From a bacterium (GTDB lineage: Bacteria > Auribacterota > Erginobacteria > Erginobacterales > DAOSXE01), in the NCBI GenBank assembly GCA_035380285.1, contig DAOSXE010000015.1:1927-65926 (forward strand): a DNA stretch of 64,000 bases. The letters run 5' to 3'. The position numbers were made by a program, and so were the translations under genes. Shown in pieces: positions 18,535 to 45,016 of the stretch. A model generated the notes under the pieces. That model did no database searches, was not told the origin of the DNA, and saw only the letters and a program-made list of their open reading frames with translations. Within the stretch, counting starts at the first letter, position 1. Every line of letters begins with the position of its first letter.

Positions 18535-18543
18535 AATCGATCC

Positions 18544-21704: not shown

Positions 21705-21736
21705 AAAAAAACCGGCTCCCCGGGGGAGGGAACCGG
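21705..21736 (-). terminator. intrinsic terminator directly downstream of tRNA-Ala
   Basis: On minus strand: ccgguucc / ggagccgg stem (8 bp, one G-U) with 9-nt loop followed by U7, beginning 4 nt after the tRNA 3-prime end. Confidence 0.5.
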
Positions 21737-21739
21737 TCG

Positions 21740-21812
21740 TGGAGCTGAGGGGATTCGAACCCCTGACCCCATGGCTGCCAGCCATGTGCTCTCCCAGCTG
21801 AGCTACAGCCCC
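21740..21812 (-). tRNA. tRNA-Ala (anticodon GGC)
   Basis: Reverse complement folds as cloverleaf: acceptor GGGGCTG/CAGCTCC with G3-U70 alanine identity pair, D-arm GCTC/GAGC, anticodon loop CTGGCAG, T-arm AGGGG-TTCGAAT-CCCCT; CCA not encoded. Confidence 0.9.
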
Positions 21813-21826
21813 GATCAATCGGGTCA

Positions 21827-21854
21827 ACTATAGCCGCGGAGCCGATCTAGTCAA
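21827..21854 (-). promoter_or_regulatory. candidate promoter for tRNA-Ala (TTGACT-16 nt-TATAGT on minus strand)
   Basis: Near-consensus hexamers read on minus strand, -10 ending ~15 nt upstream of tRNA 5-prime end, A/T-rich upstream tract. Confidence 0.4.
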
Positions 21855-21901
21855 ATAAAAACTGCAGCGCCGTTCCCGACGCTGCCCGGGGCCGCGGGTT
21901 G

Positions 21902-21910
21902 TGGTATACT
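21902..21910 (+). promoter_or_regulatory. candidate extended -10 element (TGgTATACT) upstream of the Memo-AMMECR1 gene
   Basis: TGn-TATACT read directly ~17 nt before the ATG at 21927; no clear -35. Confidence 0.25.
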
Positions 21911-21926
21911 CAAAAGGCGGGAACCC

Positions 21927-26345: not shown

Positions 26346-27425
26346 GTGGGGGCGAAACGTCTCAAGGCCGATCCCGAAAGCATCGATTTCATTTTGGCGG
26401 CCAGTCTCCTGGCCCGTCAGCAGCGGGGCAACCACGCGGGATACTACGCGCTGGCGGCGCTGAGCCGGCTGTTGGAAAAAAACCTTCCCGGAGAGACGGG
26501 GCCGATCGAGGCCATGAACATCCGGCGGCGGCTGGACCGCCTGATCGGAGAAACCGAGTTCCCCGCCGAAATCGCCGCCAAGGTCTACGAGAACTGGAGA
26601 CCGATCCGGCCCTTCCTGGAGAAAAAAATCAGCATGGTACCCTCCCACCGCATGCGCCGGATCCGGCTTTTCGTCGAGTTGGTGGCATGGGTTTTCGAAA
26701 ACTACGCCCGGGTACCGGTCTCCGAAGTCGTCCGGGAGATGACCGTGGCCGACCTCGCCCGCCTGGAGCAGGGTTTCGGGTTCAAAGTCAGGGAGACCAA
26801 ACAAAAGAAACGGGAATTCCAGGGCTTCGCTCTCGCCGACTTCGACGACCTGCTCCGAATGCGCAAGCGCCTGGACGAGGCCGCGGGCGCCCTGGGCGGC
26901 TTGCTGGGCGACCGGGGAGGCCTCAGGCTGGGCCCCAGCCTGAGCGCGGTCGATTACACCAGTTCCTGGGTGGCCCTGACCTGGTGGGACAACCCCTTGG
27001 GCGAACCGGACGGCGAAGCCGGGTTTCGGGTCATGGCCACCACGGAAACGATCACCGCCGGCTTTTTCCTGGGCGCCGAGAGTACCCGCACCCGGGAGCG
27101 TTATTACCGGCGCCTGGGATCGGGCGAACTCGCCGGCTCCCTGGAGCGGTTCGCGGGAGCGGGGGGAACGTTCTTCGACTTTTTCTGGACCTGCAACCAG
27201 GACGAACGCCGTCCCATCGACGCGCCGGAGCAACTCCGGCCCAAGATAGAGGAGACACTGGCGGAACTCGCCTCCCTCCCCCCTCCCTACCCCGATACCC
27301 CGCTGCTGCCGGGCTGGGCCTGGACCCGTGAAGAAGCGGCGGGAATGCGGGAGCGCATCCTCCCCCTGGCCGCCGGGGCCTTCGGCCCCTGCGCCGCCTT
27401 AACGGCGGCCCTGGCCGGTCAGTAA
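26346..27425 (+). CDS. hypothetical protein
   Basis: 359-aa ORF with GTG start and protein-like composition; no recognisable motif. Confidence 0.4.
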   Translation: MGAKRLKADPESIDFILAASLLARQQRGNHAGYYALAALSRLLEKNLPGETGPIEAMNIRRRLDRLIGETEFPAEIAAKVYENWRPIRPFLEKKISMVPSHRMRRIRLFVELVAWVFENYARVPVSEVVREMTVADLARLEQGFGFKVRETKQKKREFQGFALADFDDLLRMRKRLDEAAGALGGLLGDRGGLRLGPSLSAVDYTSSWVALTWWDNPLGEPDGEAGFRVMATTETITAGFFLGAESTRTRERYYRRLGSGELAGSLERFAGAGGTFFDFFWTCNQDERRPIDAPEQLRPKIEETLAELASLPPPYPDTPLLPGWAWTREEAAGMRERILPLAAGAFGPCAALTAALAGQ

Positions 27426-28066
27426 CTGCCCCCGGAGAGTTTGAAGAGCCAGAAATCGGTGGGAACGGTCAGTTCTTTCTCCTCCTCGCCGGGAACGTCC
27501 TTGACCTCCAGCACTTCCCGCTTCGGAAACCAGAACTCCCTTCCCTCGGAAACGAGACAATAGGCGCGATCGGTTTCCCGGAGGATCCGGGCGCGCGCGG
27601 CGGTGAAGGCCTGGTCGTCCTCGCTCGGGTTTTCCAGGCGGCGGAGTTTGAAGTTGTAGTAGTTTTTCTGGATGACGAACCGGCAGCGGTCGTCCTCGAT
27701 CGGTTCGATCTCGGAAAAACAGACCCGGGGCAGAAACATCTCCCGGCCGTCGATTTCGACGCAGAGGGCGTCCTGTTCCTCCCTGACCAGGCGCCCGACG
27801 ACCTCGACCACATCTCCCAGGATCGAACCTTTGACCCCGGTGGCCTTCTCTTTCAGCCCCCTCATTTCCGCCCGCTTGGCCTCGAGGACCGATTCGAGGA
27901 TTTCCATCTCGTAGATGCCCTGCTCCGCCCGCAGACAGGAACGCACGGCTTCTTCGGGAATCCAGACCTTGCCTCCCCCCAGGTCGACCAGGCTGGCTTC
28001 CTCGGTGCGGATCAATACCTTGAGACGGAGACGGACGTAGCGTTCTTCCTCGGGCATCGAGATCAT
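27419..28066 (-). CDS. hypothetical protein (last gene of the secretion operon)
   Basis: Protein-like C-terminal 215 aa of ORF 27419..28393 starting at internal ATG (MISMPEE); upstream part of that ORF is Arg/Gly-rich shadow. Confidence 0.4.
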   Translation of the reverse strand: MISMPEEERYVRLRLKVLIRTEEASLVDLGGGKVWIPEEAVRSCLRAEQGIYEMEILESVLEAKRAEMRGLKEKATGVKGSILGDVVEVVGRLVREEQDALCVEIDGREMFLPRVCFSEIEPIEDDRCRFVIQKNYYNFKLRRLENPSEDDQAFTAARARILRETDRAYCLVSEGREFWFPKREVLEVKDVPGEEEKELTVPTDFWLFKLSGGSY

Positions 28067-28131: not shown

Positions 28132-31100
28132 CTACCGAAGCTCGGAGTAAGGGCTTTCGGGAACCACCTGGTTCTCCAGATCGGAAACGGGGCGGAAGGT
28201 GGTGACCACCGCGCCCGGGGAATAGCGGTGAAGGCGGATCTCCTGGTCCCACGCCCCGGATTTCCCCCAGCGCAGATCGGGGTCGGGATCGGCCCAGGTT
28301 TCGGCGGGAACGTGCCCGGCATGATCCACTCCGGTCCACGTCACCTCCAGCTCCGTCCCTCCCACCGTCAGCACCATCCCGTCGTCGATCCACCGGTAGT
28401 CGCCCTGCAGGTGCCAGCGCACGATCCCCTGGCCGGGAAGGGTATCCTTGACTTCGATTCTCCTGTCTCCGGTCTTGTAGAGAACTACCTCGCGGCGCCA
28501 GCTCAGCGCTCCGACCGTGGAAACGGTGACGCTGCGGGACAGTTCGGAAGTGTCTTCCCAGGTCTCGGCCGCCGCCGGCGGGTAGGTGCCGCCGGTCTCG
28601 ACCAGGTTATGGAGTTTGAACGACGGATTGGAGTAGTTCATGGTCACCCCGGTGACGAACTCCTCGGGACCGACCCCCAGGCTGAGGATATCGTTGCCGA
28701 AGCCGTACCGGTCCTGGCCGCTGCCGGCGACCTGGGCGCCGAGGTCGAGCATGAGGAAAAGGGCGTCGGACCCGGACCCCGACCGGTGGATGACCTTGTC
28801 CGGGGTATCCACCAGTTGCGCCAGGGACTCGTCGTAGACTCCCGCCAACGATTGTCCCGGCATCATCGGCCGGGAGAGCACGCCCCCGGGGCAGTCCCCG
28901 TCGGCGGGCGCCTCGGGAACGAGATCTTCGTTCAGGAACCAGTAGAGGTAGACGGGGTTCATGTACACGGCGAACGGCCCCATCTGGGTGCCGGGGTAAC
29001 CGTAATCGTTGCGGCCGTAGGCCACCACTTCATGGCCCCGCGCGTACTCGAAGGCCTGCTGCAGAAGCCATTTGGCCCGCGCCGCGGCGGACCGGTGCTC
29101 GGGCACGTCATCGTCCAAAACCGCGGTGGCGGCGGCCAGGACTTCGAGGAAACGGTCGGTGAAGGCCTGCAGGTAATCCTGCCCGTAGGCGGGCATGAAC
29201 CCGTTGGGAGGGAAGGTCTCGATCAGGAGACAGACCTGGCGGTAGAAGTTGTCCCGCCACCTCTTGCCTTCCCCGTCCTCCACCGGGATCTCCATCCGGT
29301 TGGAGTAAAGGGCGACCCGCAGCATTTCCCGGATGAAGAGCCCCTGCCAATAGCGCGAGTTTTCGGGCAGGGTCCAGGTGTCGTCGTAACTGAGGAGCCG
29401 GTTGGCCCAGGCAATCATCTCCCGGCCCGGCTCTCCGCCGACGATATACCCCACCACCGCGTTGAGTCCGCAGACCGTCCCCTGCGCATAGTTCCCGGTA
29501 GAAGCGACTTCGCGGCGGTCCAGGGCCAGGCGGACGAATTTCTTCTCGATCTCGGCGCGCTCGGCCGACGAGAAAATCCCGGAGGCGGCCAGGGCCAGGT
29601 AGGCCTCGGCGACGTCGGAGATGCCCCGGGAGGTGGAGGTTCCGCCCCAGTCGAAGGAGGAATCCCGGACCAGGGCCAGCAGGTTCTCGCGAAAATAGTC
29701 GGCGCAGGGCCGGTACCCGGTCGCCAGATAGATGAAAGCGGTGTTGGGGAGATAGTCGTAAAGCGCGAACCGGGCGTCGGACGCCCCCAGGTTGCCGTCG
29801 AAGTTCTTGAAGTAGCACCCGGTGGCGAAATCGATCCAGTCGGCATAGTCCTCCACGGTCAGGCTGGAAATAAACGAGGCCCTCAGGGGGGAGGCCGGGG
29901 AATAATTGCCGTTGGTTTTTCCGGGGGTGCCGAAGTTGGTGGTGGTGCCCACGCTGTAGGTGGAACTGCTCAGCGCCCGGGCCCAGTTGGACTTGGTGGA
30001 ACCGCTCACGTCGGGGTCGAGACGCTCCATCGAAAATCCTTCCTGGGTGGTCACGAACCAGCCGGCGGAACTGCAGTCCACCGTATCGATGGTCTTACCG
30101 GAGTCGTCCTTCAAGACCAGCTTGTCCCCGCTGCCGCCGCACGTCAGCGTACTGGTGGCCTGGGCCCGGGCGCCGTTGGCCTGAACCGGAACGCTCAGGG
30201 CGCTGTTGGCGACGACCACGTAGAACGCCCCCACCGGGAGTTCGTAGCTCTTGAGCGAGATGCTCCAGTTTTCGGAATCGTTGTTCAGGGTCCAGTTTTC
30301 CACCTGCTGGGCGGCATCCCCGTAATTGGCGATCTCGATCCAACAGTAGGTGGGCTGATTCAGGGTGCCGGCGTAATTGATCTCGTTGATGACCAGCTGG
30401 CTGCTGCCGCCGCTGGAAGTGGGAGCCGGCACGGGAGTGGGAGTGGGGATGGGGGTGGGGGGAGGCGTGGGGGTGGTGAGGGTGACCCCGAACCAGGTCC
30501 GGTAAGCTTCCTTGTAGGTTTCCTGGAGGAGTCCGTAGGCCAGGGTCTGCCCTTCCGGCCGATACGGTTCCGGCGGCTCCAGGTCCTGAAGATCGTATTC
30601 CGCCTCCGCCGCGGCCGAGGCCCCGGCGGCCGCGCCGGATACCGGGGTGGGAACGACCGGGGGAAGCCAGCCCGCGCGGGCGAAGGGAGTGGGAGTGGGG
30701 GTGGCCCCGAACGTGTTCAAGTCCTCTATGTCGGGGGCGTACCAGACATGAACGCCGCCGTCTCCGGAAGCGGCGAAGACCATGTCGTCCTCCACCGCCA
30801 GCCCCTGCAGCGGGGCGCCCCCGGCTTCCAGCCTGCGCGCCAGGCGGAACCCGGGCAACTCCCAGACATAGAGGGAGCCGTCGTGACAGGAGGCGTAGAG
30901 AAACCCCCGGGCGGCGGCGGCGCCCGTAACCTGGTCCCGGCAGTCGTCGAGGATTTTCAGGGGAGCGAACTCCAGGGACCAGACATAGACATTCCCGTCC
31001 GAGGAGGAAAGGTATATCCGGTCGGCGTCGGTCGCCACCGAGTTCAGGTCGCTTTCGGCGCCGGCCAGCTCCGCCAGGGGCGCTCCGGTGGTCCGGTCCC

Positions 31101-33924
31101 AGACGTAGAGCGAGTACTCCGAGCCGCCGGTGGCGGCGTAAAGCCGTCCGGCGGCGGCGTCGACCGCCGTCACCCAGCCCCGGGACACCTGCCATTCTTC
31201 CTGCTGCTGAAACCCGTTCCGGTTCCAGGCGTAAACCCGGCGGCCGGTGGTGCCGGCGTAGACCATGCCGCCGTAAGCCGCCACTCCCTCCACCGGATCT
31301 CCGATGCTGGTCTCGCCGCGCAGGGAGCGCACCGGTTTCAGGGCAAGCCGGTCCCATACGTAGACGTTCCCGTCGTCGCTGCCGCCGTAGATGTAGCGGT
31401 CGTCGGCGGCGACCGAGATTATGGCCCCGGCGTTGGGGTAGGAGCAGCGGGAGCGGCGGCTGAAATCGTCGCGGTCCCAGATATAGACGTTGCCGTCCTC
31501 GTTCCCCCCTACCACCGAGCGGGAATCGGCCCAGACGGCCTCCATCCAACCGCTTCCGCCCTCGAGCACCGCCACTTCTTCGAACGGCGCGGGGGTGACG
31601 CTGGGCACGGCCAGCAACTGGGGCGCCGGGGTCGGAGAAAAGGGCGGAGTCCCCGCCGGCGCCGCCCCGCCGGAGGGGGAAACCGTGGGAACGGGGGTCG
31701 GGGAGCCGGGCGGCGTGGAGGCCGGGGTGACGGCGGCGGTCGGCGTCGGCGCGGGGGCTTCCGGGGACGGGGAAGGAACCGACTTCGCCGGCACCTGCAG
31801 CCAACGGTCGTAGTAGGTGTTCCCCTCGACGTCCACGTACCATTCGCGGTCGACGGCGTCGATAACGGGGGGGGGATACACGGCGGTGCGGCCGGCCGCC
31901 GCCCGGGTCGGGAGCTCGGTCAGGATTTCGAAGGAAACGTCCAGATAATCGCCTTCGGCTACGATAAAAGCGGGGTCGGTCCCCAGTTGGAGCTTGACCA
32001 TGACCGGCGCGGCGGGGACGGCGGTGCGGTCGGTGTAGGCGGTGAATTCCTGACAGTAGTCGTAGGTGCGCGCCAGCCACTCCCCGTTGTCGGCCCGGGC
32101 GACGATCCATTTCCAGCCCTTCTGCCCGGCGGCGCGGGTCTCCTTGAGATCGAGATCGGTCACCCGGCTCAGGGAGAGAGGAACGGCGCCGTACTCCGGG
32201 GTCGGAGTGGCGCTGGCGCTGGGGGTGGCGCTGGGGGTCGGGGTCTTGTACCCCTCCGGCGTCGGAGTCGGAGTCGGCGTGGGCGGGCTGGGGGTGGGGG
32301 TATGGTAACCGAAAGGAGTCGGCGTCGCGGTGGGCGCGGGAGTGGGAGTGGTCGGCGGAGTCGGAGTCGGTTCCGGGGTCGGGGTGGGGCGCGAAGAGAC
32401 CGGGGAACACAGCTCTTCGTCGCTGTAGCAGATGCCGTCCCTTCCCAGCCAGAAACGGGACGAGGCCGGAGCGCCCGGGGGCAGGTAGATCCTGGTCTGG
32501 GCGACTTGGGCCTCCCCTTCTTCGAGATAGAAGTACTGGAGGTCCAGGTAATCGCCGGCTTCGATCCGGGGATCCTCGGAATCCTTCTTGATGACCAGCG
32601 AAAGCACCGCGTCCGCGTCCAGCTTGGGCCCGGGACCGGCAAAGGAGTTGAGGCTGTCCTTGACCGAGGCCAGGGGCACATCCTCGCCCGGGGCCTCCAG
32701 GCGGTATTCCCACCCCCAACTCAGGGAGGCGCGGGGCCGGGCGATGGAGAGCGTGTTGATCTGAAACGCCGCCAGGGGGGTGGCGCAGTAGGCCGGAGTC
32801 GGCGACGGCGACGGGGGAACCGTCGGCGTCGGCGCCGCCTGACAGAGGGAGACGTCCCGGTAGAGGACCCCCGTGGAATCGGGGTACCCGACCAGAGGAG
32901 CGGTCGGGTCCAGGTCCAGGGCAGGCAGGGCGATGCTGACGGCGGAACTTCCGGAACCGGTGGCGTAATCGATCTCCAGGGTGTCCCCGGGCTCGATCAC
33001 GATGTTCCCGGAGTACCCGGGATTTTTTATGATGGTCAGGCGCAGGGGGCGGTCGTCGGTGAAAACGGCGGCGACCCGCATCTGGTTGAGGTTGTCGGTG
33101 ACGTAGGCCAGGGTGGTCCTGCCGTCGGCGGTCTGGAGCAGATAGCCCCACCCGTCGGTTGAGGTGCTCCGGGGGTGGGAGAGGCTGAGGGCGTTGATCC
33201 ACCGGGCCCGGAGGGGTTCGCGGCCGGAGCAGTAATCGGGGGTGGGGGTCGGCGTGCCCGGAATCCGGGTGGGCGGGGGCGTCGGCGTCGTCAGGTAGGG
33301 CGTCGGGGAGGTCGGCCAGATGCCGAAGGCTTCGAAATAGAACTGCCGGTAGGCTTCGTCGAGGAGGGACCGGGCCAGGGTCCCGTTCTCTTCCCGGTAA
33401 GGATTCCGCGGGTAGACGGATACCCGGCGCTCGGCGCCTTCGGGCGTGGTGATGACGACGACGATCTCCTCGCTTTCGTCCCGGTGCAATCCGCCCCGGG
33501 CGGCCGCGGCCGCGGCCGCGGTCGGACCCGGGCTGGGGGTGGGGATCCGGCTGGGCGTGGGCACCGGCGTGGGCGGCGTGGCCAGGACCACGCCGAACGC
33601 CTGGAAATAAAACTCCTTGAAGCCCCGGCCGAGCAGGGAATAGTCCAGGCTCCGGTTTTCGGGCCGGTAGTCCTCCCGGGGCTCCACCATCGTCTCGCGG
33701 GTCTCCCCCGAGGGCTCGACCACGACCACGTCCACCTTCTCCGCGCCCCCGCCGTGGAGCCCCAGGCCGGCCTCGCGGGAGGCGCCCGGAACTCCCGGCA
33801 CCCGGAAGACCCGGCCGGGAGAGGGCGAGGGAGACGGCGTCGGGGACTCGGCGCCCTCGCTCCGGAGAGGGGACAGGGCCGCGGCCAGGAGCGCCCAGGC
33901 GAAAAAGAGCGGCCGCGCCTTCAC
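28132..33924 (-). CDS. giant secreted multidomain protein (1930 aa): Pro/Thr linkers, beta-propeller repeats, lamin-tail-like domain, C-terminal heparinase II/III-like region
   Basis: Signal peptide MKARPLFFAWALLAAALSPL; many PTPTP linkers; repeated DGNVYVWD-type blades; LVINEINY...WIEIANYGD segment; ~600-aa C-terminal region of helical-then-beta character; start overlaps the upstream stop (ATGA). Confidence 0.75.
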   Translation of the reverse strand: MKARPLFFAWALLAAALSPLRSEGAESPTPSPSPSPGRVFRVPGVPGASREAGLGLHGGGAEKVDVVVVEPSGETRETMVEPREDYRPENRSLDYSLLGRGFKEFYFQAFGVVLATPPTPVPTPSRIPTPSPGPTAAAAAAARGGLHRDESEEIVVVITTPEGAERRVSVYPRNPYREENGTLARSLLDEAYRQFYFEAFGIWPTSPTPYLTTPTPPPTRIPGTPTPTPDYCSGREPLRARWINALSLSHPRSTSTDGWGYLLQTADGRTTLAYVTDNLNQMRVAAVFTDDRPLRLTIIKNPGYSGNIVIEPGDTLEIDYATGSGSSAVSIALPALDLDPTAPLVGYPDSTGVLYRDVSLCQAAPTPTVPPSPSPTPAYCATPLAAFQINTLSIARPRASLSWGWEYRLEAPGEDVPLASVKDSLNSFAGPGPKLDADAVLSLVIKKDSEDPRIEAGDYLDLQYFYLEEGEAQVAQTRIYLPPGAPASSRFWLGRDGICYSDEELCSPVSSRPTPTPEPTPTPPTTPTPAPTATPTPFGYHTPTPSPPTPTPTPTPEGYKTPTPSATPSASATPTPEYGAVPLSLSRVTDLDLKETRAAGQKGWKWIVARADNGEWLARTYDYCQEFTAYTDRTAVPAAPVMVKLQLGTDPAFIVAEGDYLDVSFEILTELPTRAAAGRTAVYPPPVIDAVDREWYVDVEGNTYYDRWLQVPAKSVPSPSPEAPAPTPTAAVTPASTPPGSPTPVPTVSPSGGAAPAGTPPFSPTPAPQLLAVPSVTPAPFEEVAVLEGGSGWMEAVWADSRSVVGGNEDGNVYIWDRDDFSRRSRCSYPNAGAIISVAADDRYIYGGSDDGNVYVWDRLALKPVRSLRGETSIGDPVEGVAAYGGMVYAGTTGRRVYAWNRNGFQQQEEWQVSRGWVTAVDAAAGRLYAATGGSEYSLYVWDRTTGAPLAELAGAESDLNSVATDADRIYLSSSDGNVYVWSLEFAPLKILDDCRDQVTGAAAARGFLYASCHDGSLYVWELPGFRLARRLEAGGAPLQGLAVEDDMVFAASGDGGVHVWYAPDIEDLNTFGATPTPTPFARAGWLPPVVPTPVSGAAAGASAAAEAEYDLQDLEPPEPYRPEGQTLAYGLLQETYKEAYRTWFGVTLTTPTPPPTPIPTPTPVPAPTSSGGSSQLVINEINYAGTLNQPTYCWIEIANYGDAAQQVENWTLNNDSENWSISLKSYELPVGAFYVVVANSALSVPVQANGARAQATSTLTCGGSGDKLVLKDDSGKTIDTVDCSSAGWFVTTQEGFSMERLDPDVSGSTKSNWARALSSSTYSVGTTTNFGTPGKTNGNYSPASPLRASFISSLTVEDYADWIDFATGCYFKNFDGNLGASDARFALYDYLPNTAFIYLATGYRPCADYFRENLLALVRDSSFDWGGTSTSRGISDVAEAYLALAASGIFSSAERAEIEKKFVRLALDRREVASTGNYAQGTVCGLNAVVGYIVGGEPGREMIAWANRLLSYDDTWTLPENSRYWQGLFIREMLRVALYSNRMEIPVEDGEGKRWRDNFYRQVCLLIETFPPNGFMPAYGQDYLQAFTDRFLEVLAAATAVLDDDVPEHRSAAARAKWLLQQAFEYARGHEVVAYGRNDYGYPGTQMGPFAVYMNPVYLYWFLNEDLVPEAPADGDCPGGVLSRPMMPGQSLAGVYDESLAQLVDTPDKVIHRSGSGSDALFLMLDLGAQVAGSGQDRYGFGNDILSLGVGPEEFVTGVTMNYSNPSFKLHNLVETGGTYPPAAAETWEDTSELSRSVTVSTVGALSWRREVVLYKTGDRRIEVKDTLPGQGIVRWHLQGDYRWIDDGMVLTVGGTELEVTWTGVDHAGHVPAETWADPDPDLRWGKSGAWDQEIRLHRYSPGAVVTTFRPVSDLENQVVPESPYSELR

Positions 33925-34481
33925 TTGCGTTCCGCCCCCTGGTTTTTGAGGGGCTCGGCCGAAATGATCGTCGCCTCGACGTCGAGCAGGTCGTCGTTCT
34001 TGCGGTTGAGAGCCACGGTCAGTTCCCGGATCACCTGGCTGCCTCCGTTCTGGTACTCGACGGCGTAGAGAAAGTCCACCAGTTGATCCAGGGGGACCCC
34101 CGCCAGCTCCACCTGCAGCTCCACCACCTTATACAGGTCGTGCACGGTCCGGTTGCGGGTGTTCATCTTGGTCAGTTCGGCCGCCGGGGCCTTCTCCGCG
34201 GCCAATTTCTCGATCAGGCCCTGATTCAGCACGGTTTCGCCGCCCACCCCGCCCATGCCCCGGAGGATCTGGTCGGTTTTGGACCGCAAGACCGCGTACT
34301 TGCGGTGGAGACGTTCCATCTTCTGCAGGGAGATCTCCTGCTCTTCGATCCGTTCGTTGACGCCGACCCATTGGTCCCAGAGCGAACCTTCCCGCAGGAA
34401 AAGAAACCAGACCACGGCGATGAGAAGAAACCCGCCGCCGCCGACGAGCACCGTCCGTTTTTCCCGTTGCTTGAGGGCCAT
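33921..34481 (-). CDS. type II secretion GspM-like protein
   Basis: Single N-terminal TM (LVGGGGFLLIAVVWFLFL) plus ~150-aa periplasmic domain, positioned after the GspL-like gene. Confidence 0.5.
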   Translation of the reverse strand: MALKQREKRTVLVGGGGFLLIAVVWFLFLREGSLWDQWVGVNERIEEQEISLQKMERLHRKYAVLRSKTDQILRGMGGVGGETVLNQGLIEKLAAEKAPAAELTKMNTRNRTVHDLYKVVELQVELAGVPLDQLVDFLYAVEYQNGGSQVIRELTVALNRKNDDLLDVEATIISAEPLKNQGAERK

Positions 34482-34484
34482 CCG

Positions 34485-36113
34485 TTACTCCTGGCGGATA
34501 AGGGGAATGGTGTAGGTGAACTCGACCGTCACCGTCTTCGCCCCGTCTTTCCTGGTCTTGGCCGGGCTTTCCTTGAGTTGGTCGCCGATGAACAGCGCCG
34601 AGGACTGAATCGCCTTCTTGATCAGTTCGGCGGTGCCGTAATTCTCGGTGCGGGCCCGCAAGCGGACACGGTCCTGGTTGATGTCGAGTTCGACCACCTG
34701 GACCTTGAGCTTGTCGGGAATGACCCGGCTCAGTTCCAGGAGGGCGTCCAATCCGGAAATGCTGCTGAACTCCCGGTAGTAATCGAAATTATCCCGCATC
34801 TCCTTCAGGGAATCCTCCATGGCCTGCAGCTCGCGGCCCCGGGCCTGCTGGGCCTGTTCGGGGAAAGCCGAAGCCAGAATTCCGGAGATGCGGGCCTGGA
34901 GAGCGGCCGATTCCGTCTCCTTCGCCCCCATCCTCAGGTGCAGGGAAACGGCGAACGCGGCCAAGAGGCCCAGAATCAACCCCAAGGTGATCAGAAGGCG
35001 CCGGCGGACCGCTCCCCACGAACCCGCCCAGGTCAACTCCTCCTTGCGGAAATTCACCCGCCGGCCCTCCCGGCCCACGGCGAACGAGGCCATCCCCATC
35101 GCTTCCCCGGCCCCGGGGAGGCGGTGCTTTCCTTCCCTGACGCCCGTCCAGGGATCGGCCGGCTGCGAGGCGCCCCCCGCCAGCCGCTCCAGGGACTCCC
35201 GCAACCCGGGGAGGTCCGCGCCCCCTCCGGTCAGGAGCAGCCGGTCCGGCGGCCGGCCCCCGGTCGCGGCGCCGGCGGTGTGCAGGGTCCGGGAAATCTC
35301 GGCTTCGAAACGGGCCAGACAGGCGCTCACGGCCGCTTCCACCTTCCCGGCTTCGGGGGCGCCCAGGCCGACCCCGCGTTTGAGGCTCTCGGCTTCGGGA
35401 AACGGGGCCCCCGTCTCCTTCATGACGGCGGCGGTGACGGTATCGCCCCCCCAGGTGAAACTTCGCAGCAGCACCAGGCGCCCGTCCTGGAAGAACCCGG
35501 CCGAGGTGTGCGCGGCCCCGACCTCGAGCAGGGCGGTCACGCCGGAGTCGAGAATCTGCCCTCCCCGGCGGCAGGCGTCGGCGAGACCGGGGAAATCGAC
35601 TCCGATCCCGGCGGGGTCGATCCCGGCCTCGGCCAGAAGTTCCAGTTGGCCGGCCAGGAAATCCTTGCGGGCGGCGACCATCATCACCCTGGTCTTGCCC
35701 TCTTCCAGGACTTCCTGAGGCCAGAAGTCGATGACCACCTGGTCCAACGGGAAGGGTATGTGCAGTTCCGCCTCCGAGGAGATGACCTGTTCGATCAGGT
35801 TGAGGCGGGTGAAGGGGACGACCAGGCTGCGCAGGAAAACCCGGTGCAGGGGCAGGGCACAGACGGTCACTTCCGCCCGGGGCGCCTTCGGGGAAAAAAG
35901 CTCGCGCAGCGCCGCGGCCGTTTCTTCCCGTCCCGGCGCCGCGGGGGCGGTCCGGGCGATCGCGGCGGAGCGGGCCCAGGAAACCCGCGGAAGCCGGCCC
36001 CGGGCGCGGCGGGCCACCACCGCGCGAACGGCGGTGGTGCCGATGTCGATCCCCAGCGCGCTGCCGGGGATATCGGCCCGCTGCCTCATTTTTTCCAAGA
36101 AGTCTTTCATCAT
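34485..36113 (-). CDS. type II secretion GspL / PilM-PilN-like assembly protein
   Basis: N-terminal actin-like ATPase-fold motif (LGIDIGTTAVRAVV), central TM, periplasmic C-terminal domain. Confidence 0.6.
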   Translation of the reverse strand: MMKDFLEKMRQRADIPGSALGIDIGTTAVRAVVARRARGRLPRVSWARSAAIARTAPAAPGREETAAALRELFSPKAPRAEVTVCALPLHRVFLRSLVVPFTRLNLIEQVISSEAELHIPFPLDQVVIDFWPQEVLEEGKTRVMMVAARKDFLAGQLELLAEAGIDPAGIGVDFPGLADACRRGGQILDSGVTALLEVGAAHTSAGFFQDGRLVLLRSFTWGGDTVTAAVMKETGAPFPEAESLKRGVGLGAPEAGKVEAAVSACLARFEAEISRTLHTAGAATGGRPPDRLLLTGGGADLPGLRESLERLAGGASQPADPWTGVREGKHRLPGAGEAMGMASFAVGREGRRVNFRKEELTWAGSWGAVRRRLLITLGLILGLLAAFAVSLHLRMGAKETESAALQARISGILASAFPEQAQQARGRELQAMEDSLKEMRDNFDYYREFSSISGLDALLELSRVIPDKLKVQVVELDINQDRVRLRARTENYGTAELIKKAIQSSALFIGDQLKESPAKTRKDGAKTVTVEFTYTIPLIRQE

Positions 36114-36131
36114 CTTCGCGTCGCCGCCGGC

Positions 36132-37409
36132 CTACTCGCTTTCCGTCGTCGGTATCCAGGGGGATTCCACTTTCCACCGGAGAATGACCATCCGCTCGTC
36201 CAGGCGGTGGACCAGGGCCCGCACCCGGCAGGTGGCGCGGGGGGGGCGTCCGGGAGAGTCTTCTCCGCCCGGGCTTCCCCCGACCCGTCCCTCGGATATG
36301 ATTGTAAAAAAATCGCTTTCGACCTTGAACCGCTTTTCCAAACCCGGCGGCAGATCGCAGTCCAGTTCGCCCAGCGACGTTTCGTCCAGCTCCTCGAAAG
36401 GAAGCTCGTCCCGGGCCTGGGCCAGGCACTGGGCCGCGTCCAAGGCGTCGTCCTCGTATTCCTCCCCCAAACTCCTCAGTCCCAGGGCGATCACCGGGAC
36501 CGAGGCGGTGTTAAGGTTGATATAGCCGTCAGAGTATACTGTAAAGTACGAACGAAACCCCGAAAATGGTTCATCTTCGCCGGAAGGTTCGGACTCCTCG
36601 GAGCCTTCCGCGCCCTCCAGCCGGATTTCCTCCGGGGCCGGCCCCAGAAACAGGTACCGGGTCATATCCTTGATCAGACTGATCTCCCCCGGCGTTTCCA
36701 TCGGGGCTTTCTTGATCGTGTACCCGGGATCGCCGAGGCTGTAATCGCTCTTCCCCCGGTCGTTGGACGTGATCCAGTTGGCCAGATTTCCGGAAATGTC
36801 CTCGGCGTTCTCCAACTCCAGGTACTCGAAAAACCAGGTGAGAACGTCGACCATCTTCTCTTCCTCGGGCCAGGGGTCGTCCTCGTCCCGGTCGGTCCCC
36901 TCCCCTCCCGGTTCGGGGTCGGGGCTGGTCCCGGTAACGGTCGATCCCTCGTCCCCCCCACCCTCCCCTTCGTCCTTGCTCTCCCCCTCCAGTTTGGAGA
37001 TCAGACCGGTGACCTCCTTGACCCCTTTTTCTTCCTTGATGAGGAGGTTGATGTTGAACTTGCGGTCCTCGTCGACGACGGCGAAGGCGAAACCGCCCCG
37101 GCCCAGCTCGACTTCGGACTGGGCCACGGCCCAGGGATCGATCAGCGAGTCGTAGGGCTTGGCTTCCATCTCCCCCTGCGCTTCCCCCGATTCCTCCAGG
37201 TCGCTGAGCTTGTCCTGCGCCAGCAGGTCCATGGCTTGAGCCACCCCGGCTCGGGCCAGGCAGTACGCTTCTTCGCTGTCGCGGAAGGCGGAGGCCATCC
37301 GGGCGTCGAGGCTGATCAGGTAGGAAAACTGCAGCACCAGGACGGCCAGAACCGCCGCCATGAAAACCACGACCATCAGCACCGCGCCGTTCTGGGAGGA
37401 AACGCGCAT
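36132..37409 (-). CDS. type II secretion GspK-like minor pseudopilin
   Basis: N-terminal hydrophobic pilin-like segment and large acidic periplasmic domain; start at internal ATG (MRVSSQ) overlapping upstream stop (TGATG). Confidence 0.55.
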   Translation of the reverse strand: MRVSSQNGAVLMVVVFMAAVLAVLVLQFSYLISLDARMASAFRDSEEAYCLARAGVAQAMDLLAQDKLSDLEESGEAQGEMEAKPYDSLIDPWAVAQSEVELGRGGFAFAVVDEDRKFNINLLIKEEKGVKEVTGLISKLEGESKDEGEGGGDEGSTVTGTSPDPEPGGEGTDRDEDDPWPEEEKMVDVLTWFFEYLELENAEDISGNLANWITSNDRGKSDYSLGDPGYTIKKAPMETPGEISLIKDMTRYLFLGPAPEEIRLEGAEGSEESEPSGEDEPFSGFRSYFTVYSDGYINLNTASVPVIALGLRSLGEEYEDDALDAAQCLAQARDELPFEELDETSLGELDCDLPPGLEKRFKVESDFFTIISEGRVGGSPGGEDSPGRPPRATCRVRALVHRLDERMVILRWKVESPWIPTTESE

Positions 37410-38095
37410 CACCGATCCTCCTCCGGCGGCGCCTTGCTCCCTCCGGCCGGAACCCAGGCGGCGACGGAAAACCGCCGGACATCCTCCTCTTCGTCGGAGG
37501 GACCGAAGCCGACGGTGACCTTGACCGCCGTGGGCAGCGCCTCTTCCTCGAGGATATCCCATTCGTCCTGCCAGGCTTCCTCCTCGGGGCTGTAGTATTT
37601 GAAATCGAGGGAGCGGACGCCCTCCGCCAGTATCATCTCCTCCCCGCCCTCGAACGGTTCGTCCAGGCTGTAGCAGGGAGCGACCTTGGCCATGAGCTTG
37701 TCTTCTTCCCGATAGTAGGAAATCTCCCAGGTGTCGTAACCGGGGGTGTCCTCCCGACCGGAGCGGAGGAAGGTGGTGGTGATGAAGCTGATCCGGTCCG
37801 ACTCGAAACCGCCCGCCCAGAGATCGTCGGTCAGAAATAGGTTTTTAACGTCGTCTTCGTCCTCTCCCGCATAAAAAGGAACGTAGATGCCGCTCAATTC
37901 CCGCTCCAGCCCCCCCAGCACCACCCGCGCCGCCTGGTAGGCGTCGGAACCGGTGCGGTAGCGGCGGCTGGAGCCGACCACGGTGGAAAAGGACCAGTAG
38001 ACCGAGGAAAGGATCACCGCGGTGAGGGCGGCGGCGATCAACAGTTCCAGAATGGTGAACCCGGCTTGCCCCGGGGAGGCGGCGCTCTTATTCAA
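37409..38095 (-). CDS. GspJ-like pseudopilin
   Basis: Prepilin-type N-terminus GFTILELLIAAALTAVIL. Confidence 0.6.
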   Translation of the reverse strand: MNKSAASPGQAGFTILELLIAAALTAVILSSVYWSFSTVVGSSRRYRTGSDAYQAARVVLGGLERELSGIYVPFYAGEDEDDVKNLFLTDDLWAGGFESDRISFITTTFLRSGREDTPGYDTWEISYYREEDKLMAKVAPCYSLDEPFEGGEEMILAEGVRSLDFKYYSPEEEAWQDEWDILEEEALPTAVKVTVGFGPSDEEEDVRRFSVAAWVPAGGSKAPPEEDR

Positions 38096-38507
38096 CCGGC
38101 TTCTCCTCGGGTTCCGGGTATTCGAGGTTGACGATATAGGTGGAGAAGGCGACCTTCCTCCCCTCTTCCTCCCCTCCCTCGGGGAACGAAACCCCCTCGA
38201 CCTGGGCCAGGGATTCGGCCACCTCGCCGACCGCCGCCTTCCAGCGCAGATGTTCCCATTCCTCCACGACCCCGCCGTAGTCGCCCTGGGCGGCGGGAAG
38301 TCCGATCGCCTCCACCGTCGCCAGAGCGGAAGCGGCCGCCAGCGTTTCTCCGGTGCGTTCCTTGGATCGGGCGAAATTCTTCAGGACCGAACCGTGGGTG
38401 AGCAGGAGGGGGGAGAGGGATATCCCCAGCAGAGCGACCGCGACCATGACCTCGATCAGGGTAAACCCCCGGGCCCCGGGAAACGACTTCTCAGCCCTTG
38501 ATCTCAA
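38088..38507 (-). CDS. GspI-like pseudopilin
   Basis: Prepilin-type N-terminus GFTLIEVMVAVALLGI. Confidence 0.55.
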   Translation of the reverse strand: MRSRAEKSFPGARGFTLIEVMVAVALLGISLSPLLLTHGSVLKNFARSKERTGETLAAASALATVEAIGLPAAQGDYGGVVEEWEHLRWKAAVGEVAESLAQVEGVSFPEGGEEEGRKVAFSTYIVNLEYPEPEEKPVE

Positions 38508-38967
38508 CCTCGCTTCTCCCCACGTACGGTTTGAGGTTGATGATGTAGCGGCGGCCGAAATCGTCGGCGCTGCGCAGCACGATCTCGGCCCCGTCCGAAT
38601 TTCCGCCGGGATAGAAGTAGATCGGGGAGGAGACCGTTCCCGAGAGCCGCAGCCCCTCGGGGATGGCCTGGGGGGCGCCCAGCCGGCCCGGGACCGTTTC
38701 CTGGGAACCGTCGGCGCCCAGGCGCCCCAACCGGAAGGTCTTGTCGTTGCGGTCGAGGTAGACCAGGTAGATCCGGCCCTCGAGGACGGCTCGGGCCCGG
38801 GCGTAGTCCAGGGTGCCGGCCAGCCGCCGGGTGAACCCCACCGCCTTGCGGGAAGAGATCAGCCCGGTGAACCGGGGGAAAACCACCAGGGCCAGCACTC
38901 CGATCAGGGCGGCCACGATCGCCAGTTCCAGGAGGGTGAACCCCCGGTTTTCGGGGCGGCGGCGCAT
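38491..38967 (-). CDS. GspH-like pseudopilin
   Basis: Prepilin-type N-terminus GFTLLELAIVAALIGVL. Confidence 0.55.
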   Translation of the reverse strand: MRRRPENRGFTLLELAIVAALIGVLALVVFPRFTGLISSRKAVGFTRRLAGTLDYARARAVLEGRIYLVYLDRNDKTFRLGRLGADGSQETVPGRLGAPQAIPEGLRLSGTVSSPIYFYPGGNSDGAEIVLRSADDFGRRYIINLKPYVGRSEVEIKG

Positions 38968-38988
38968 GACGTCGAGGGCTCCCCGGCC

Positions 38989-39408
38989 TCAGTTGGCGAT
39001 ATCCTGGTTCTCGCCTTCGCCGCCGGGGGACGCGTCCTTGCCGTAGGAGACGATGGTGTAATCGGCTCCCTCGGCCCCGCCTTTCGTGTAGATGTAGGCG
39101 TTCCCCCAGGGATCCTTGGGAATCTCCTGCTTCTTCAGGTAGGGCCCCGACCACCCGTCCGTGCTTCCCTCGGCCCGGACCAGGCCGTCGAGACTGCCGG
39201 GATAGTCGTAGACGTCGGCGTAGTACATCTCCAAGGCGTCGGCGAACGCCTGGATCTGGGCCTGGGCGGCGGCCTGCTTTCCCCGCCCGATGCGCTTCAT
39301 GAAAGCCGCCCCCACCACCGCGGTCAGGAGCCCGATGATGGCGATCACCACCATCAGCTCGACCAGGGTGAACCCCGCGGACCGTTGTCGTGCGTTCTTT
39401 CTTTTCAT
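38989..39408 (-). CDS. gspG: type II secretion major pseudopilin GspG
   Basis: GFTLVELMVVIAIIGLL prepilin N-terminus and DPWGNAYIY signature. Confidence 0.85.
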   Translation of the reverse strand: MKRKNARQRSAGFTLVELMVVIAIIGLLTAVVGAAFMKRIGRGKQAAAQAQIQAFADALEMYYADVYDYPGSLDGLVRAEGSTDGWSGPYLKKQEIPKDPWGNAYIYTKGGAEGADYTIVSYGKDASPGGEGENQDIAN

Positions 39409-39500
39409 GCTACCTCCCCCCGGCGCCGGAGAGAGACCCGGAGGGTTTCCCCGCCGCGCTCCCGGCGCCGGTTTTCGTTTTGTTCGTCACGAGCGTCTTC

Positions 39501-40721
39501 CTAGATCTGAATATCGGACATCTGCAGAATCGGCAGCAGGATGGAGATGACGATAAATCCCACCACCACCCCCATGAACAGGATCATGATCGGCTCCAGC
39601 ACCGTGGTCAGAACGCTGACCGAAGCCTCGACCTCGTCTTCGTAGGCCTGGGCCATCTTGAAGAGCATGTCCTCCAGAGCCGCGCTCGACTCCCCTACCG
39701 AGAGCATGTGCACCACGATCGGGGGGAACACCCGGCTCTGCCGGAAAGGCTCGGCGATGGATTTCCCGGCCCTGACCGCGTCCTTGGCCTGTTCGATGGC
39801 CTCTCCCACCGCCTGGTTGTTGACGATGTTCTTGACGATGTCGAAGGAGTGCAGGAGCGGCGTCCCGCTGGAGAGGAGGATGCCCAGCGTGCGGCTGAAA
39901 CGGACGATGGTGAGCTTGCGGAAAATGGGGCCGAAGATGGGGATCTTGAGCTTCCAGCAGTCCACCAGGTACCGGGCCCGCTTGCCCCGGGACCAGACCC
40001 GGTAGATCAGATATACCCCCCCCAGGACCAGGAGAATCAACCACCAGTATTCCTGGACGAGCGTGCTGGCGTTGATCAGGATCCGGGTGGGCAACGGCAG
40101 CGCCTTCTCGGTGTCCTCGAAGAGGACGATGATGGTGGGGACGACCTTGATCAGGAGAAACGCCACCACGAGCACGCCCACCATGGATACCACCACCGGG
40201 TAGAGCATGGCCCCCCGGACGGTGCTGCGCAGCTTGAGGTTCTTCTCCGCCAGGTCCGCCAGACGGCCCAGCACCATCTCCAGCGCCCCCGCGGTTTCGC
40301 CGGCCTTGACCATGTTGACGTAGAGGGGGGAAAAAATCCGGGGATGCTCGGCCAGGGCGTCGGCGAAGGTGGAGCCGGCGTTGACCTGGTCCCGGATCTG
40401 GATCACCACCCGCTTGAGGGGGTTGCCTTCGAACTGTTCGATCAGGGCGCTCAGGGAGGGGACCAAAGGCATCCCCGCCCCAACCAGGGTGGAGAGCTGG
40501 CGGGTGAAGACGGAGACGTCGGAGGCCTTGATCCTCCCCAGGATGCGGGAGACGTTGACCTCGCTCTGCAGCCCGATCTTCTCCTCGCTGCGGACGATCT
40601 CGGTCGGGTAGAGGGCCTGGCGCCGGAGTTTGGTGCGGGCGTCGGCCGGGGAATCGGCGTCGATGATCCCCGTCACCTGGCTCCCTTTCCCGTTCAATGC
40701 CTTGTATTCGAAAACCGCCAT
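39501..40721 (-). CDS. gspF: type II secretion inner-membrane platform protein GspF
   Basis: 406 aa with two GspF-type repeats and three hydrophobic segments. Confidence 0.85.
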   Translation of the reverse strand: MAVFEYKALNGKGSQVTGIIDADSPADARTKLRRQALYPTEIVRSEEKIGLQSEVNVSRILGRIKASDVSVFTRQLSTLVGAGMPLVPSLSALIEQFEGNPLKRVVIQIRDQVNAGSTFADALAEHPRIFSPLYVNMVKAGETAGALEMVLGRLADLAEKNLKLRSTVRGAMLYPVVVSMVGVLVVAFLLIKVVPTIIVLFEDTEKALPLPTRILINASTLVQEYWWLILLVLGGVYLIYRVWSRGKRARYLVDCWKLKIPIFGPIFRKLTIVRFSRTLGILLSSGTPLLHSFDIVKNIVNNQAVGEAIEQAKDAVRAGKSIAEPFRQSRVFPPIVVHMLSVGESSAALEDMLFKMAQAYEDEVEASVSVLTTVLEPIMILFMGVVVGFIVISILLPILQMSDIQI

Positions 40722-40758
40722 CCGTCTTCCCGTCCCGTTCGCCGGGCCGCTCCCGGCT

Positions 40759-42486
40759 TCAGACCTCGATGATATCTTCCTGCGTGACCCGGATCACTTC
40801 CTCGACGGTCGTCTCTCCGCTCACGACCTTGCGGGCCCCGTCCATTCTCAGGGTGCGCATCCCCCGCTTGAGGGCGGCGCGCTTGATCGTGCCCACGTCC
40901 ACCCGCTCCACCACCATCCGCCTGATCTCGTCGTCGACCAGCAGCAGTTCGAATATGGCCGAACGCCCCATGTAGCCGGAATGAAAACACTTCTCGCATC
41001 CCTTTCCCCGTACCAGGGGGCGCCCCTCGAGCTGGTCGAGGGCGAGGCCGATGCTTTTGAGTTCCTCCTCGCTGGGCGCGTAGGACTCACCGCAGTGGGG
41101 GCAGATGGTGCGGACCAGGCGCTGGGCCATGATCCCCACCACCGAGGAAGAGACCAGGTAGGGCTCGACTCCCATGTCGATCATCCTGGTGATGGCCCCG
41201 GCGGCGTCGTTGGTGTGGAGGGTGCTGAAGACCAGGTGGCCGGTCAGCGAAGCCTGGATGGCGATTTCGGCGGTCTCGGTGTCGCGCATCTCGCCGACCA
41301 GGACGATATCCGGGTCCTGGCGGAGAATCGAGCGCAACCCGTTGGCGAAGGTGAGGTTGATCTTGGGAGCGACCTGGATCTGCCCGATCCCGGGCAGCTG
41401 GTACTCCACCGGGTCCTCGATGGTGATGATGTTCTTGTCCAGGGAGTTCATCTCGTGCAGAGCGGCGTAGAGCGTGGTGGTCTTTCCCGACCCCGTGGGC
41501 CCGGTCACCAGGATGATGCCGTGGGTGAGTTTCAACAGCCGGCGCAGGAGCTTAAGGCCGTCGTCGCCCAGCCCCAGATCGTGGAGCCCGAACAACTGGC
41601 TGGACTTGTCCAGGAGCCTCAACACGATCCGTTCCCCGAACGAAACCGGGATGACCGAGACCCGGATATCGATCTCCCGGTCGGTGATCCGGATCTTGAT
41701 CCTGCCGTCCTGGGGGAGGCGCTTCTCGGCGATGTTGAGGTTGGCCATGATCTTGACGCGGGAGATGATCGAGGACTGGTACTGTTTGGGCGGGCTGAGG
41801 ACCTCGTAGAGAACGCCGTCGATCCGGTAGCGGACCCGCAGGTCCTTTTCGAAGGGTTCGATGTGGATATCGCTGGCCCGGGCCTTGACCGCCTCGAAGA
41901 TGATCAGGTTGATCAATTTGATCACCGGGGCCTTGGCGGCGATGTCCAGAAGGTCCTCGGCGGCGTCGGTGATGGTCACCATCTCCGGAGCGTCTTCGTC
42001 TTCCTCCAGCCCCTCCAACATGGCCTCGGCGGCGCCGTCGGCGTGTCCGTAGCAGCGGTTGGCGATCCGGACGATCTCCTCGGGCACCGAGACGATCACG
42101 TCCAGGTTGCGGTCGAGAAGAAGGCGGAGGTCGTCCAGAGGCTGAACGTCGAGGGGGTCGGCCATCGCCACCTTGACCGTTCCGTCGGCGGACGCACCCA
42201 GGGGGATAAGCCGGTTGGCCAGAAGAAAATTGAGCGGGACCCGGGAGACCAGCGCCTTGTCCACGCGCTCCTCGGTCAGGTGCTCCTCGAAGGGGAACCC
42301 CAGGCATTCGGCCAGGGCCCGGCGGACCTGGCTGTCCCGAACCAACCCGGCTTCGATCAGTTCCTCGGTCAGCGACCGGCTTTCGCCCGGAGACCATTTA
42401 TCCAGAACCTTGTCCAGAGCCGGCCGGGCGAGGGCGCCGGCGCCGACCAGCTTCTCGGCTACTTCCTTTTCCAGAACCTCGTTCAT
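40759..42486 (-). CDS. gspE: type II secretion ATPase GspE
   Basis: Walker A GPTGSGKTTT, Asp box, tetracysteine CPHCG...CEKCFHSG near C-terminus. Confidence 0.9.
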   Translation of the reverse strand: MNEVLEKEVAEKLVGAGALARPALDKVLDKWSPGESRSLTEELIEAGLVRDSQVRRALAECLGFPFEEHLTEERVDKALVSRVPLNFLLANRLIPLGASADGTVKVAMADPLDVQPLDDLRLLLDRNLDVIVSVPEEIVRIANRCYGHADGAAEAMLEGLEEDEDAPEMVTITDAAEDLLDIAAKAPVIKLINLIIFEAVKARASDIHIEPFEKDLRVRYRIDGVLYEVLSPPKQYQSSIISRVKIMANLNIAEKRLPQDGRIKIRITDREIDIRVSVIPVSFGERIVLRLLDKSSQLFGLHDLGLGDDGLKLLRRLLKLTHGIILVTGPTGSGKTTTLYAALHEMNSLDKNIITIEDPVEYQLPGIGQIQVAPKINLTFANGLRSILRQDPDIVLVGEMRDTETAEIAIQASLTGHLVFSTLHTNDAAGAITRMIDMGVEPYLVSSSVVGIMAQRLVRTICPHCGESYAPSEEELKSIGLALDQLEGRPLVRGKGCEKCFHSGYMGRSAIFELLLVDDEIRRMVVERVDVGTIKRAALKRGMRTLRMDGARKVVSGETTVEEVIRVTQEDIIEV

Positions 42487-42504
42487 CGCCTTTCTCCCGC
42501 CGGC

Positions 42505-44937: not shown

Positions 44938-45016
44938 GCGGTTTCCCCTGCTCGATGTTGGCTCTGTAATCGGCTTCGTTTCCCGGGCCCGCGCGGGCGC
45001 CCGTTGCCGATTCGTT

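Follow-up and report, generated by a model that had tools for sequence, protein, structure and literature searches.

Substrates of type II secretion systems (T2SS) are usually scattered in genomes, and their recognition signals have been elusive. The Klebsiella pullulanase PulA is paired with pulC-O, and the sslE gene adjoins its T2SS genes at the same locus; SslE and PulA are lipoproteins, and their genes precede the gsp genes or diverge from them. E. coli SslE (YghJ), a glycan-active exoprotein of ~180 kDa, is exported by a dedicated T2SS, T2SS-beta (PMC3707838, PMC5012682). In this work we analyzed a 64,000-nt stretch of DNA (hereafter the window; contig DAOSXE010000015.1 of assembly GCA_035380285.1) from a bacterium of the phylum Auribacterota, in which a gene for a giant 1930-aa modular protein directly follows gspM at the end of a complete gsp operon. 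The C-terminal module of this protein is predicted to adopt the two-domain heparinase II/III-type fold. We propose with moderate confidence that the giant modular exoprotein is a dedicated cargo of the adjacent T2SS and that its C-terminal cassette acts on acidic, uronate-containing glycans.

The fold in question is shared by well-described enzymes. His and Tyr are both capable of serving as catalytic acid/base, and in dermatan-sulfate epimerase 1 (DS-epi1) the catalytic set is His/Tyr/His, including a beta-domain His. The catalytic set of the lyase superfamily consists of a toroid Asn that acts as neutralizer, a Tyr ~54 residues further on and a beta-domain His, for example N192/Y246/H401 in GAGase II, N201/Y258/H413 in Alg17c of polysaccharide lyase (PL) family 17 and N240/Y294/H424 in heparinase III (PMC12088678). 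In the HxHxD strand of GAGase II, His401 is catalytic and His403 and Asp405 are metal ligands, while the toroid-only lyases of PL5 and PL38 function without a beta-domain His (PMC12088678).

The giant open reading frame (ORF) occupies 28132..33924 on the minus strand, begins with GTG and encodes 1930 aa followed by a stop codon. Long ORFs are found in several frames because the surrounding DNA is 63-70% GC; those on the opposite strand or in other frames, such as 28228..33162 on the plus strand (1644 aa), have G/R/P-rich translations and were rejected as high-GC artefacts. Among the overlapping frames, domain matches and homologues were restricted to the minus-strand frame, and the 1930-aa ORF proposed at this position by the first-pass annotation, which had been made from the sequence by a model without database searches, is a real gene. 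Its start codon, GTG at 33924, and the TGA stop codon of gspM share a 4-nt overlap (GTGA; context AAGTGA). An identical protein, P0008 from JGI metagenomes 3300010350 and 3300009775, has been called 63 codons shorter (1867 aa). This shorter start, also used for L016 and L017, removes 33736-33924 (minus strand) and leaves no signal peptide and an artificial 185-nt gap after gspM. We rejected the 1867-aa public call as the true start since it loses the leader kept in orthologues and ignores the overlap with gspM. The 1930-aa form is the better call because of the GTG/TGA overlap, the classical leader MKARPLFFAWALLAAALSPLRSEG and a similar leader in every full-length orthologue.

The upstream T2SS operon (33921..46094, minus strand) was delineated by Pfam matches, ORFs and the order of genes in orthologous loci. 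It opens with an unannotated 386-aa ORF (44934-46094), which has no Pfam match and overlaps the gspD start by 4 nt; its position suggests a GspC-like protein or another inner-membrane partner of the secretin. There follow on the same strand gspD (42505-44937; Secretin, Secretin_N and N0 domains), gspE (40759-42486), gspF (39501-40721), gspG (38989-39408) and gspH (38491-38967), then a gspI-like pseudopilin gene (38088-38507), gspJ (37409-38095, Pfam), a gspK-like gene (36132-37562, weak match), a PilM/GspL-like gene (34485-36113) and gspM (33921-34481; 28.5 bits against a cutoff of 27.8). The operon is complete in that gspD, E, F, G, H, I, J, K, L-like and M are all present.

The position of the giant gene is conserved. 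Three full-length orthologues with 41-44% identity (P0009, P0010, P0011) occupy the same slot after gspM. Further loci were collected by a scan of GTDB species representatives, with gene order determined by tblastn; the scan added loci from PVC-group metagenome-assembled genomes (MAGs) and from Ca. Euphemobacter frigidus (phylum Auribacterota). Gene order was compared in every locus with enough flank, which gave at least seven orthologous loci. The order gspK, pilM/L, gspM, giant gene (WD40, lamin-tail domain, lyase fold) and a 215-aa gene was found in L001/2, L003, L004, L007, L009 and L011, with Ca. Euphemobacter frigidus among them, except that the 215-aa gene was undetectable by tblastn in L011. 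The linkage to a complete gsp cluster that is expected of a dedicated cargo was found in the window and in seven orthologous loci. In the window the 215-aa gene (27419..28066, minus strand) is separated by 65 nt from the giant ORF upstream of it and contains three internal repeats of ~60 aa. It is 51-55% identical to the gene at the same position in L001, L003, L004, L007, L008 and L009, a conservation comparable to that of the lyase-fold module and well above that of the giant protein overall. Its product has no signal peptide, no PDB relative and, in Pfam, only a weak sub-threshold match to S1_2.

The first-pass annotation had assigned the C-terminal ~600 aa to the polysaccharide lyase type, with alternating helical and beta character, and had named profile-HMM annotation and structure prediction as the checks. 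The two checks gave different answers. Pfam and NCBIfam searches of the whole protein found no match in aa 1-780 or 1340-1930, so that the C-terminal module, like the A and B modules described below, is unrecognized by either collection. An AlphaFold2 model of aa 1342-1930 (pTM 0.81, mean pLDDT 74) has ~12 helices (module residues 43-289) and, after them, a beta-sandwich (340-571); the two kinds of structure are thus sequential and not alternating. The first 36 Foldseek matches to this model were all two-domain lyases (PL35, 17, 33, 15, 12, 21, 39) or DS-epimerase, with E values from 1.4e-12 to 1e-8, after which the E values dropped to ~3e-4; dermatan-sulfate epimerase was among the top fold matches, and heparinase III, PL15, exo-heparinase and heparinase II were among the lower-ranked ones. 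The module is therefore predicted to have the two-domain heparinase II/III-type fold, i.e., a toroid plus an antiparallel beta-sandwich. The earlier fold call was right because Foldseek agrees with it, even though profile HMMs are blind to the module. The alpha/alpha toroid half (aa ~1355-1680; 28885..29862, minus strand) carries the motifs GNYAQG..CGLNAVVGY (N1478, Q1481), LSYDDTWTLPENSRYW (E1521, Y1525) and FPPNGF (N1574). In the beta-sandwich half (aa ~1681-1915; 28180..28884, minus strand), delimited by the AlphaFold2 model, structure matches and hhalign, the motifs are IHRSG (R1714), GFGNDILSL (N1744), GPEEF (E1754) and RWHLQG (W1837, H1838).

The module belongs to a rare, unannotated family. 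A word-indexed search of 5.8 billion clusters recovered seven relatives, and 1.84 billion representatives, searched exhaustively with a profile, yielded 20 relatives below 1e-30 and 65 below 1e-3; every named relative is a "hypothetical protein." Outside the T2SS loci the module stands alone in a Bacteroidaceae MAG and in Patescibacteria, Aenigmatarchaeota, Planctomycetales and Aerophobetes. In one relative, P0003 (JGI, 690 aa), an FHA domain stands where the module would have its last beta-strands; this protein is encoded on a 2.2-kb contig and is probably an assembly or frameshift chimera. Four weaker profile-search matches (P0052, P0058, P0062, P0073) were considered as bridges to known lyases and were discarded, as none has a Pfam or PDB relation.

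Next, we examined the putative active site. GAGase II local motifs (SSNNWNQVCNAG, PDGAYPEGYSYWGYG, and GTSHAHMDVGSFVM) and its HxHxD-strand motif (GTSHAHMDVGSF) were rebuilt from the mutagenic primers in PMC12088678, and the fragments were used to fetch 120 PL35-like sequences (PF16332 or PF07940) for a family alignment. The 21-sequence module family was then compared with the PL35 alignment by hhalign, with a reversed control. The beta-domains aligned to PL35 PF07940 over 161 columns with a P value of 2.5e-4 and a probability of 43% (reversed control, P 0.2), and in this alignment ..MRtSW.. lines up with ..IHRSGW.. and GmQdY with GpEEF. Among relatives that are 21-55% identical, ~35 residues of the module are invariant or near-invariant, many of them polar (Q, Y, E, R, N, D, H); they include Q1481, Y1493, E1521, S1523, R1536, N1574, R1714, N1744, E1754, R1811, D1827 and H1838. 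Across the orthologues the C-terminal module is 46-57% identical, the propeller 29-41% and the lamin-tail domain 35-41%. Because polar residues are invariant and the module is the best conserved part of the protein, we expect a functional site of the kind typical of catalytic or ligand sites. Residues 1525, 1526 and 1573 (nt 29350-29352, 29347-29349 and 29206-29208, minus strand) are Y/W/P in the window protein and in P0020, Y/Y/Q in P0001 and H/Y/H in most relatives; that the changes travel together suggests that the three are neighbors in the site. A catalytic set chosen by eye (N1522 as neutralizer, Y1580 or Y1584 as the Tyr and F1742 at the His position) was dropped because hhalign gave another register (N1478, Y1525) and positions 1580 and 1584 vary among F, W, Q, R and P.

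A number of results weigh against an active lyase delivered by the neighboring T2SS. PF07940 (Hepar_II_III), PF16332 (DUF4962), PF16889 and PF05426 did not match the giant protein at E values up to 1, and Pfam at E up to 0.01 gave nothing in 10 proteins from the profile search (six clear relatives and four weaker ones). A search of all PDB sequences with phmmer, using the single sequence, and with a 12-sequence family profile returned chance matches only and no lyase. The AlphaFold2 model was built on eight sequences only, and the most conserved loop (module residues 172-184) has a pLDDT below 50. For the toroid half, the hhalign signal against PL35 equals that of the reversed control. Relaxed hhalign settings pair N192-W-N-Q of GAGase II with N1478-Y-A-Q1481 and P241-E242-G-Y-S-Y246-W247 with P1520-E1521-N-S-R-Y1525-W1526, both with low posterior confidence, and position 1525 is Tyr in three of the 21 sequences (the window protein, P0020 and P0001) and His in the other 18. 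The HAHMD strand of PL35 aligns with ...YGFGNDILSL, where none of the 21 relatives provides a conserved His, and no HxH motif is found in aa 1342-1930. For these last two reasons a canonical beta-domain His cannot be assigned, and with the HxHxD catalytic and metal signature missing, lyase activity is plausible but unproven. Finally, the assignment of secretion to the adjacent T2SS draws on gene order only, and the scanned ORFs of the window included no glycan-utilization genes. Taking the conservation and these points together, we consider the conserved site to be probably catalytic but non-canonical.

The remainder of the giant protein is a string of modules separated by linkers. A Sec-type signal peptide, MKARPLFFAWALLAAALSPLRSEG, was recognized by sequence inspection and hydropathy at aa 1-~24 (33853..33924, minus strand); MKARPLFFAWALLAAALSPLRSEGAE comprises a basic n-region and a hydrophobic core of ~12 residues. 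Equivalent leaders start all full-length orthologues, and the lipobox Cys is absent from the leader of the giant protein. Pro/Thr linkers, with 40-72% P+T+S in windows, lie between all modules; the longest Pro/Thr/Ser linker (aa 511-574; 32203..32394, minus strand) reaches up to 72% P+T+S. A seven-bladed WD40-type beta-propeller is predicted at aa 781-1062 (30739..31584, minus strand) from the Pfam WD40 match (PF00400, 44.6 bits against a cutoff of 27) and from seven DGNVYVWD-type blade motifs at aa 810, 851, 894, 936, 976, 1015 and 1055, spaced by ~41 aa; many propeller families match aa 787-1070. A lamin-tail domain (LTD) follows at aa 1174-~1340 (29905..30405, minus strand), where PF00932 matches aa 1174-1283 with an E value of 7.5e-13 and 49.3 bits against a gathering cutoff of 34.3, and a Ser/Thr linker separates it from the ~590-aa C-terminal module. 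The signal peptide, the Pro/Thr linkers, the DGNVYVWD-type blades and the lamin-tail reading of LVINEINY...WIEIANYGD in the first-pass annotation were all borne out by these data, and its interpretation is supported for fold and localization. The strand, the T2SS operon context, the three copies each of the A and B modules and the lack of profile-HMM support for the C-terminal region were not part of that annotation.

The A and B modules are recurring and unannotated, and their copies span aa 60-715 and 1105-1151. The A module is a 47-aa unit with the pattern Y.P..K[ST][LI].Y.LL...Y...Y...FG..LTT, and a PT linker (TTPTPPP) always follows it. Three copies lie on the minus strand: aa 70-116 (33577..33717; no Pfam match), aa 160-206 (33307..33447), which AlphaFold2 modeled at low confidence as a single helix, and aa 1105-1151 (30472..30612), directly before the LTD cassette. 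The slot before the LTD is kept in every orthologue. A modules are confined to the T2SS-linked giant proteins (L001-L004, L007-L009, L011), where they are found near the N-terminus and again before the LTD; none was found elsewhere in the window or in the 17 fetched loci. The A module could be a candidate targeting or recognition element for the T2SS, judging from this distribution. The B module is a beta-sandwich of ~130 aa in three copies, also on the minus strand: aa 228-365 (32830..33243), with a terminal Cys pair C232/C361, aa 376-510 (32395..32799), with C380/C506, and aa 575-714 (31783..32202), in which the terminal Cys pair has been lost. The N-termini of the orthologues vary: propellers number from one to three, B modules from zero to three, and there are other inserts; the constant cassette consists of the A module, PT linker, LTD and lyase-fold module.

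With the architecture, fold and conserved operon linkage as starting points, we propose the following route for the giant protein, in which secretion, substrate class and catalysis are deduced. The gene would be transcribed with, and through the observed GTGA overlap translationally coupled to, the gsp operon. The N-terminal signal peptide would direct Sec export, and in the periplasm the protein may fold with disulfides formed by the Cys pairs that close the B modules. From its conserved operon membership, the folded protein would then pass through the GspD secretin to the surface or medium. Outside the cell, the Pro/Thr linkers would space the lineage-variable N-terminal region (A modules, B beta-sandwiches, WD40 propellers), which probably serves attachment or reach. 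The invariant cassette of A module, LTD and heparinase II/III-fold module would be the business end, binding an acidic uronate polysaccharide and probably cleaving it by beta-elimination. In such a non-canonical site, Y1525 (His in most relatives) may act as acid/base and N1478/Q1481 may lie near the carboxylate, with no counterpart of the beta-domain His on which PL12/15/17/21/35 enzymes rely. The earlier suggestion of an extracellular glycan-degrading or adhesion protein fits the evidence as far as localization and fold are concerned; the lyase part of it holds at the fold level only, given the absence of HxHxD.

The adhesion half of that suggestion deserves consideration of its own. The giant protein might be a non-catalytic glycan-binding adhesin, a pseudo-lyase displayed by the T2SS, with the LTD, B modules and propeller binding polysaccharide, particles or cells. 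The absence of HxHxD throughout the module family agrees with this, as do the variation of the candidate toroid-Tyr positions among H, Y, F and W in the relatives and the long PT spacers, repeated beta-sandwiches and propeller, which resemble those of surface adhesins. However, the ~35 near-invariant residues persist over 21-55% identity and in archaeal and Patescibacteria relatives, which exceeds what is usual for binding modules; the toroid-only lyases PL5 and PL38 need no beta-domain His; and position 1525 is always one of the two residues that can work as acid/base. We regard the adhesin as rather unlikely.

A second possibility concerns the substrate. We link the C-terminal module to glycans because one stand-alone homologue, P0007 (L006), is encoded inside a cluster of glycosyltransferases (GT2/GT4), epimerases and a PMT-family enzyme. 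Genes for GT9, GT2 and a UDP-sugar pyrophosphorylase are also found two to four genes downstream in L001-L003, an arrangement not kept in the window. Both clusters would suit a protein that processes the cell's own exopolysaccharide at the surface, like AlgL in alginate export, rather than one that forages on environmental glycans, and dermatan-sulfate epimerase, a polymer-modifying enzyme, is among the top fold matches. Against this, the genes downstream of the giant-gene pair in the window do not serve glycan synthesis but encode a HAMP-SpoIIE phosphatase and an unannotated protein of 359 aa, and the conserved linkage is to the T2SS and not to glycosyltransferases. Own-exopolysaccharide processing thus appears quite unlikely to us. 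Least probable is a role as a PilY1-like structural part of the secretion or pilus apparatus, located on the pseudopilus tip or capping the secretin. In its favor, all orthologous loci have the gene directly behind gspM, strictly conserved in this slot and translationally coupled, a seven-bladed propeller is present and Auribacterota MAGs have been annotated with type IV pili (PMC9324843). Against it, the protein has no pilin-like N-terminus, propeller number and N-terminal modules vary freely in orthologues, in which conservation falls on the enzyme-fold module, and GspK, GspH, GspJ and the GspD N0 domain are hallmarks of a T2SS; we rejected a PilY1-like identity since PilY1/PilC PF05567 is unmatched and the gene follows gspM, not the minor pseudopilins.

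We return to the reading of a T2SS cargo acting on uronate-containing glycans for what it would mean. Throughout an uncultured phylum the gene for the presumed giant cargo is fixed at the end of the gsp operon, which offers a natural pairing for finding a recognition determinant; the A module would be one candidate. If active, the module would found a new CAZy-type lyase family with alternative chemistry on the heparinase II/III scaffold. For the Auribacterota, known only from MAGs, it provides a functional hypothesis of extracellular acidic-glycan processing. In the literature searched, no paper links lamin-tail domains with type II secretion, and mentions of an LTD together with a polysaccharide lyase are unrelated. 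A bolder version, which we hold to be possible rather than probable, is a new lyase or uronate-epimerase family whose toroid base can be either His or Tyr and whose beta-domain has neither the His nor a metal site; together with the lineage-specific A module and the co-conserved 215-aa cytoplasmic partner it would form a fixed unit, "one secretion system, one giant cargo," and this unit would define the contact of Auribacterota with extracellular polymers; the A module could here be the T2SS recognition element. In our view, a rewired site in a lyase-fold family and a T2SS whose dedicated cargo is encoded in its own operon are variants within known categories and not a new category.

Several other features of the window were recorded. 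The 359-aa ORF lies at 26346-27425 on the plus strand, next to a gene for an 896-aa HAMP and SpoIIE (PP2C phosphatase) protein (23524-26214, plus strand) that is convergent to the giant-gene pair. A low-GC island at ~11300-22000 on the minus strand (0.51-0.53, compared to 0.63-0.70 elsewhere) encodes a putative O-methyltransferase, an HATPase_c_3 protein, a C5 cytosine DNA methylase, a metalloenzyme-superfamily protein, a RuBisCO-large-chain-like protein and a GNAT and HAD fusion; it looks horizontally acquired and to comprise modification/defense genes and a sugar-phosphate pathway. Another secreted protein could be encoded about 3 kb beyond the distal end of the T2SS operon by a 486-aa ORF (48954-50414, plus strand) that contains a matrixin (Peptidase_M10) domain. 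Two neighboring large ORFs at 47386-48543 (minus strand) and 51202-53910 (plus strand) have no Pfam match.

To place the giant protein among known systems, the module was compared with a set of PL lyases: PL35 GAGase II (8KHV) and GAGase VII (8KHW), PL17 Alg17c (4NEI), PL15 Atu3025 (3A0O), PL12 heparinase III (4MMH/4FNV), PL21 heparinase II (2FUQ), PL33 and PL39. A weak profile-profile signal runs co-linearly through the beta-domains, and the toroid N-W-x-Q may correspond, at low confidence, to N-Y-x-Q of the module, with P-E-x-x-x-Y-W in both. Unlike these enzymes, the module is 10-13% identical to them, lacks the HxHxD strand, forms the end of a 1930-aa fusion in which an LTD, a propeller and PT linkers precede it, and is encoded in a T2SS operon instead of a polysaccharide-utilization locus. 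Human dermatan-sulfate epimerase 1 (6HZN) differs in that its beta-domain His has no counterpart in the module and no sequence similarity is detectable. PilY1/PilC are likewise large secreted proteins that have a propeller of seven blades and whose genes lie among those for pili or pseudopili, whereas the propeller of the giant protein is of WD40 type and varies in copy number among orthologues, PF05567 is absent and the gene comes after gspM. Compared to SslE and PulA, the giant gene encodes no lipobox and comes last, behind gspM, whose end it overlaps by 4 nt, and is then followed by the gene for the cytoplasmic 215-aa protein; the domain content is also unrelated (M60 protease or GH13 versus LTD and lyase fold). 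What the three would have in common is a large Sec-dependent, glycan-active exoprotein with a dedicated T2SS, and by this analogy SslE with T2SS-beta may be taken as the closest functional counterpart of the giant protein and its operon.

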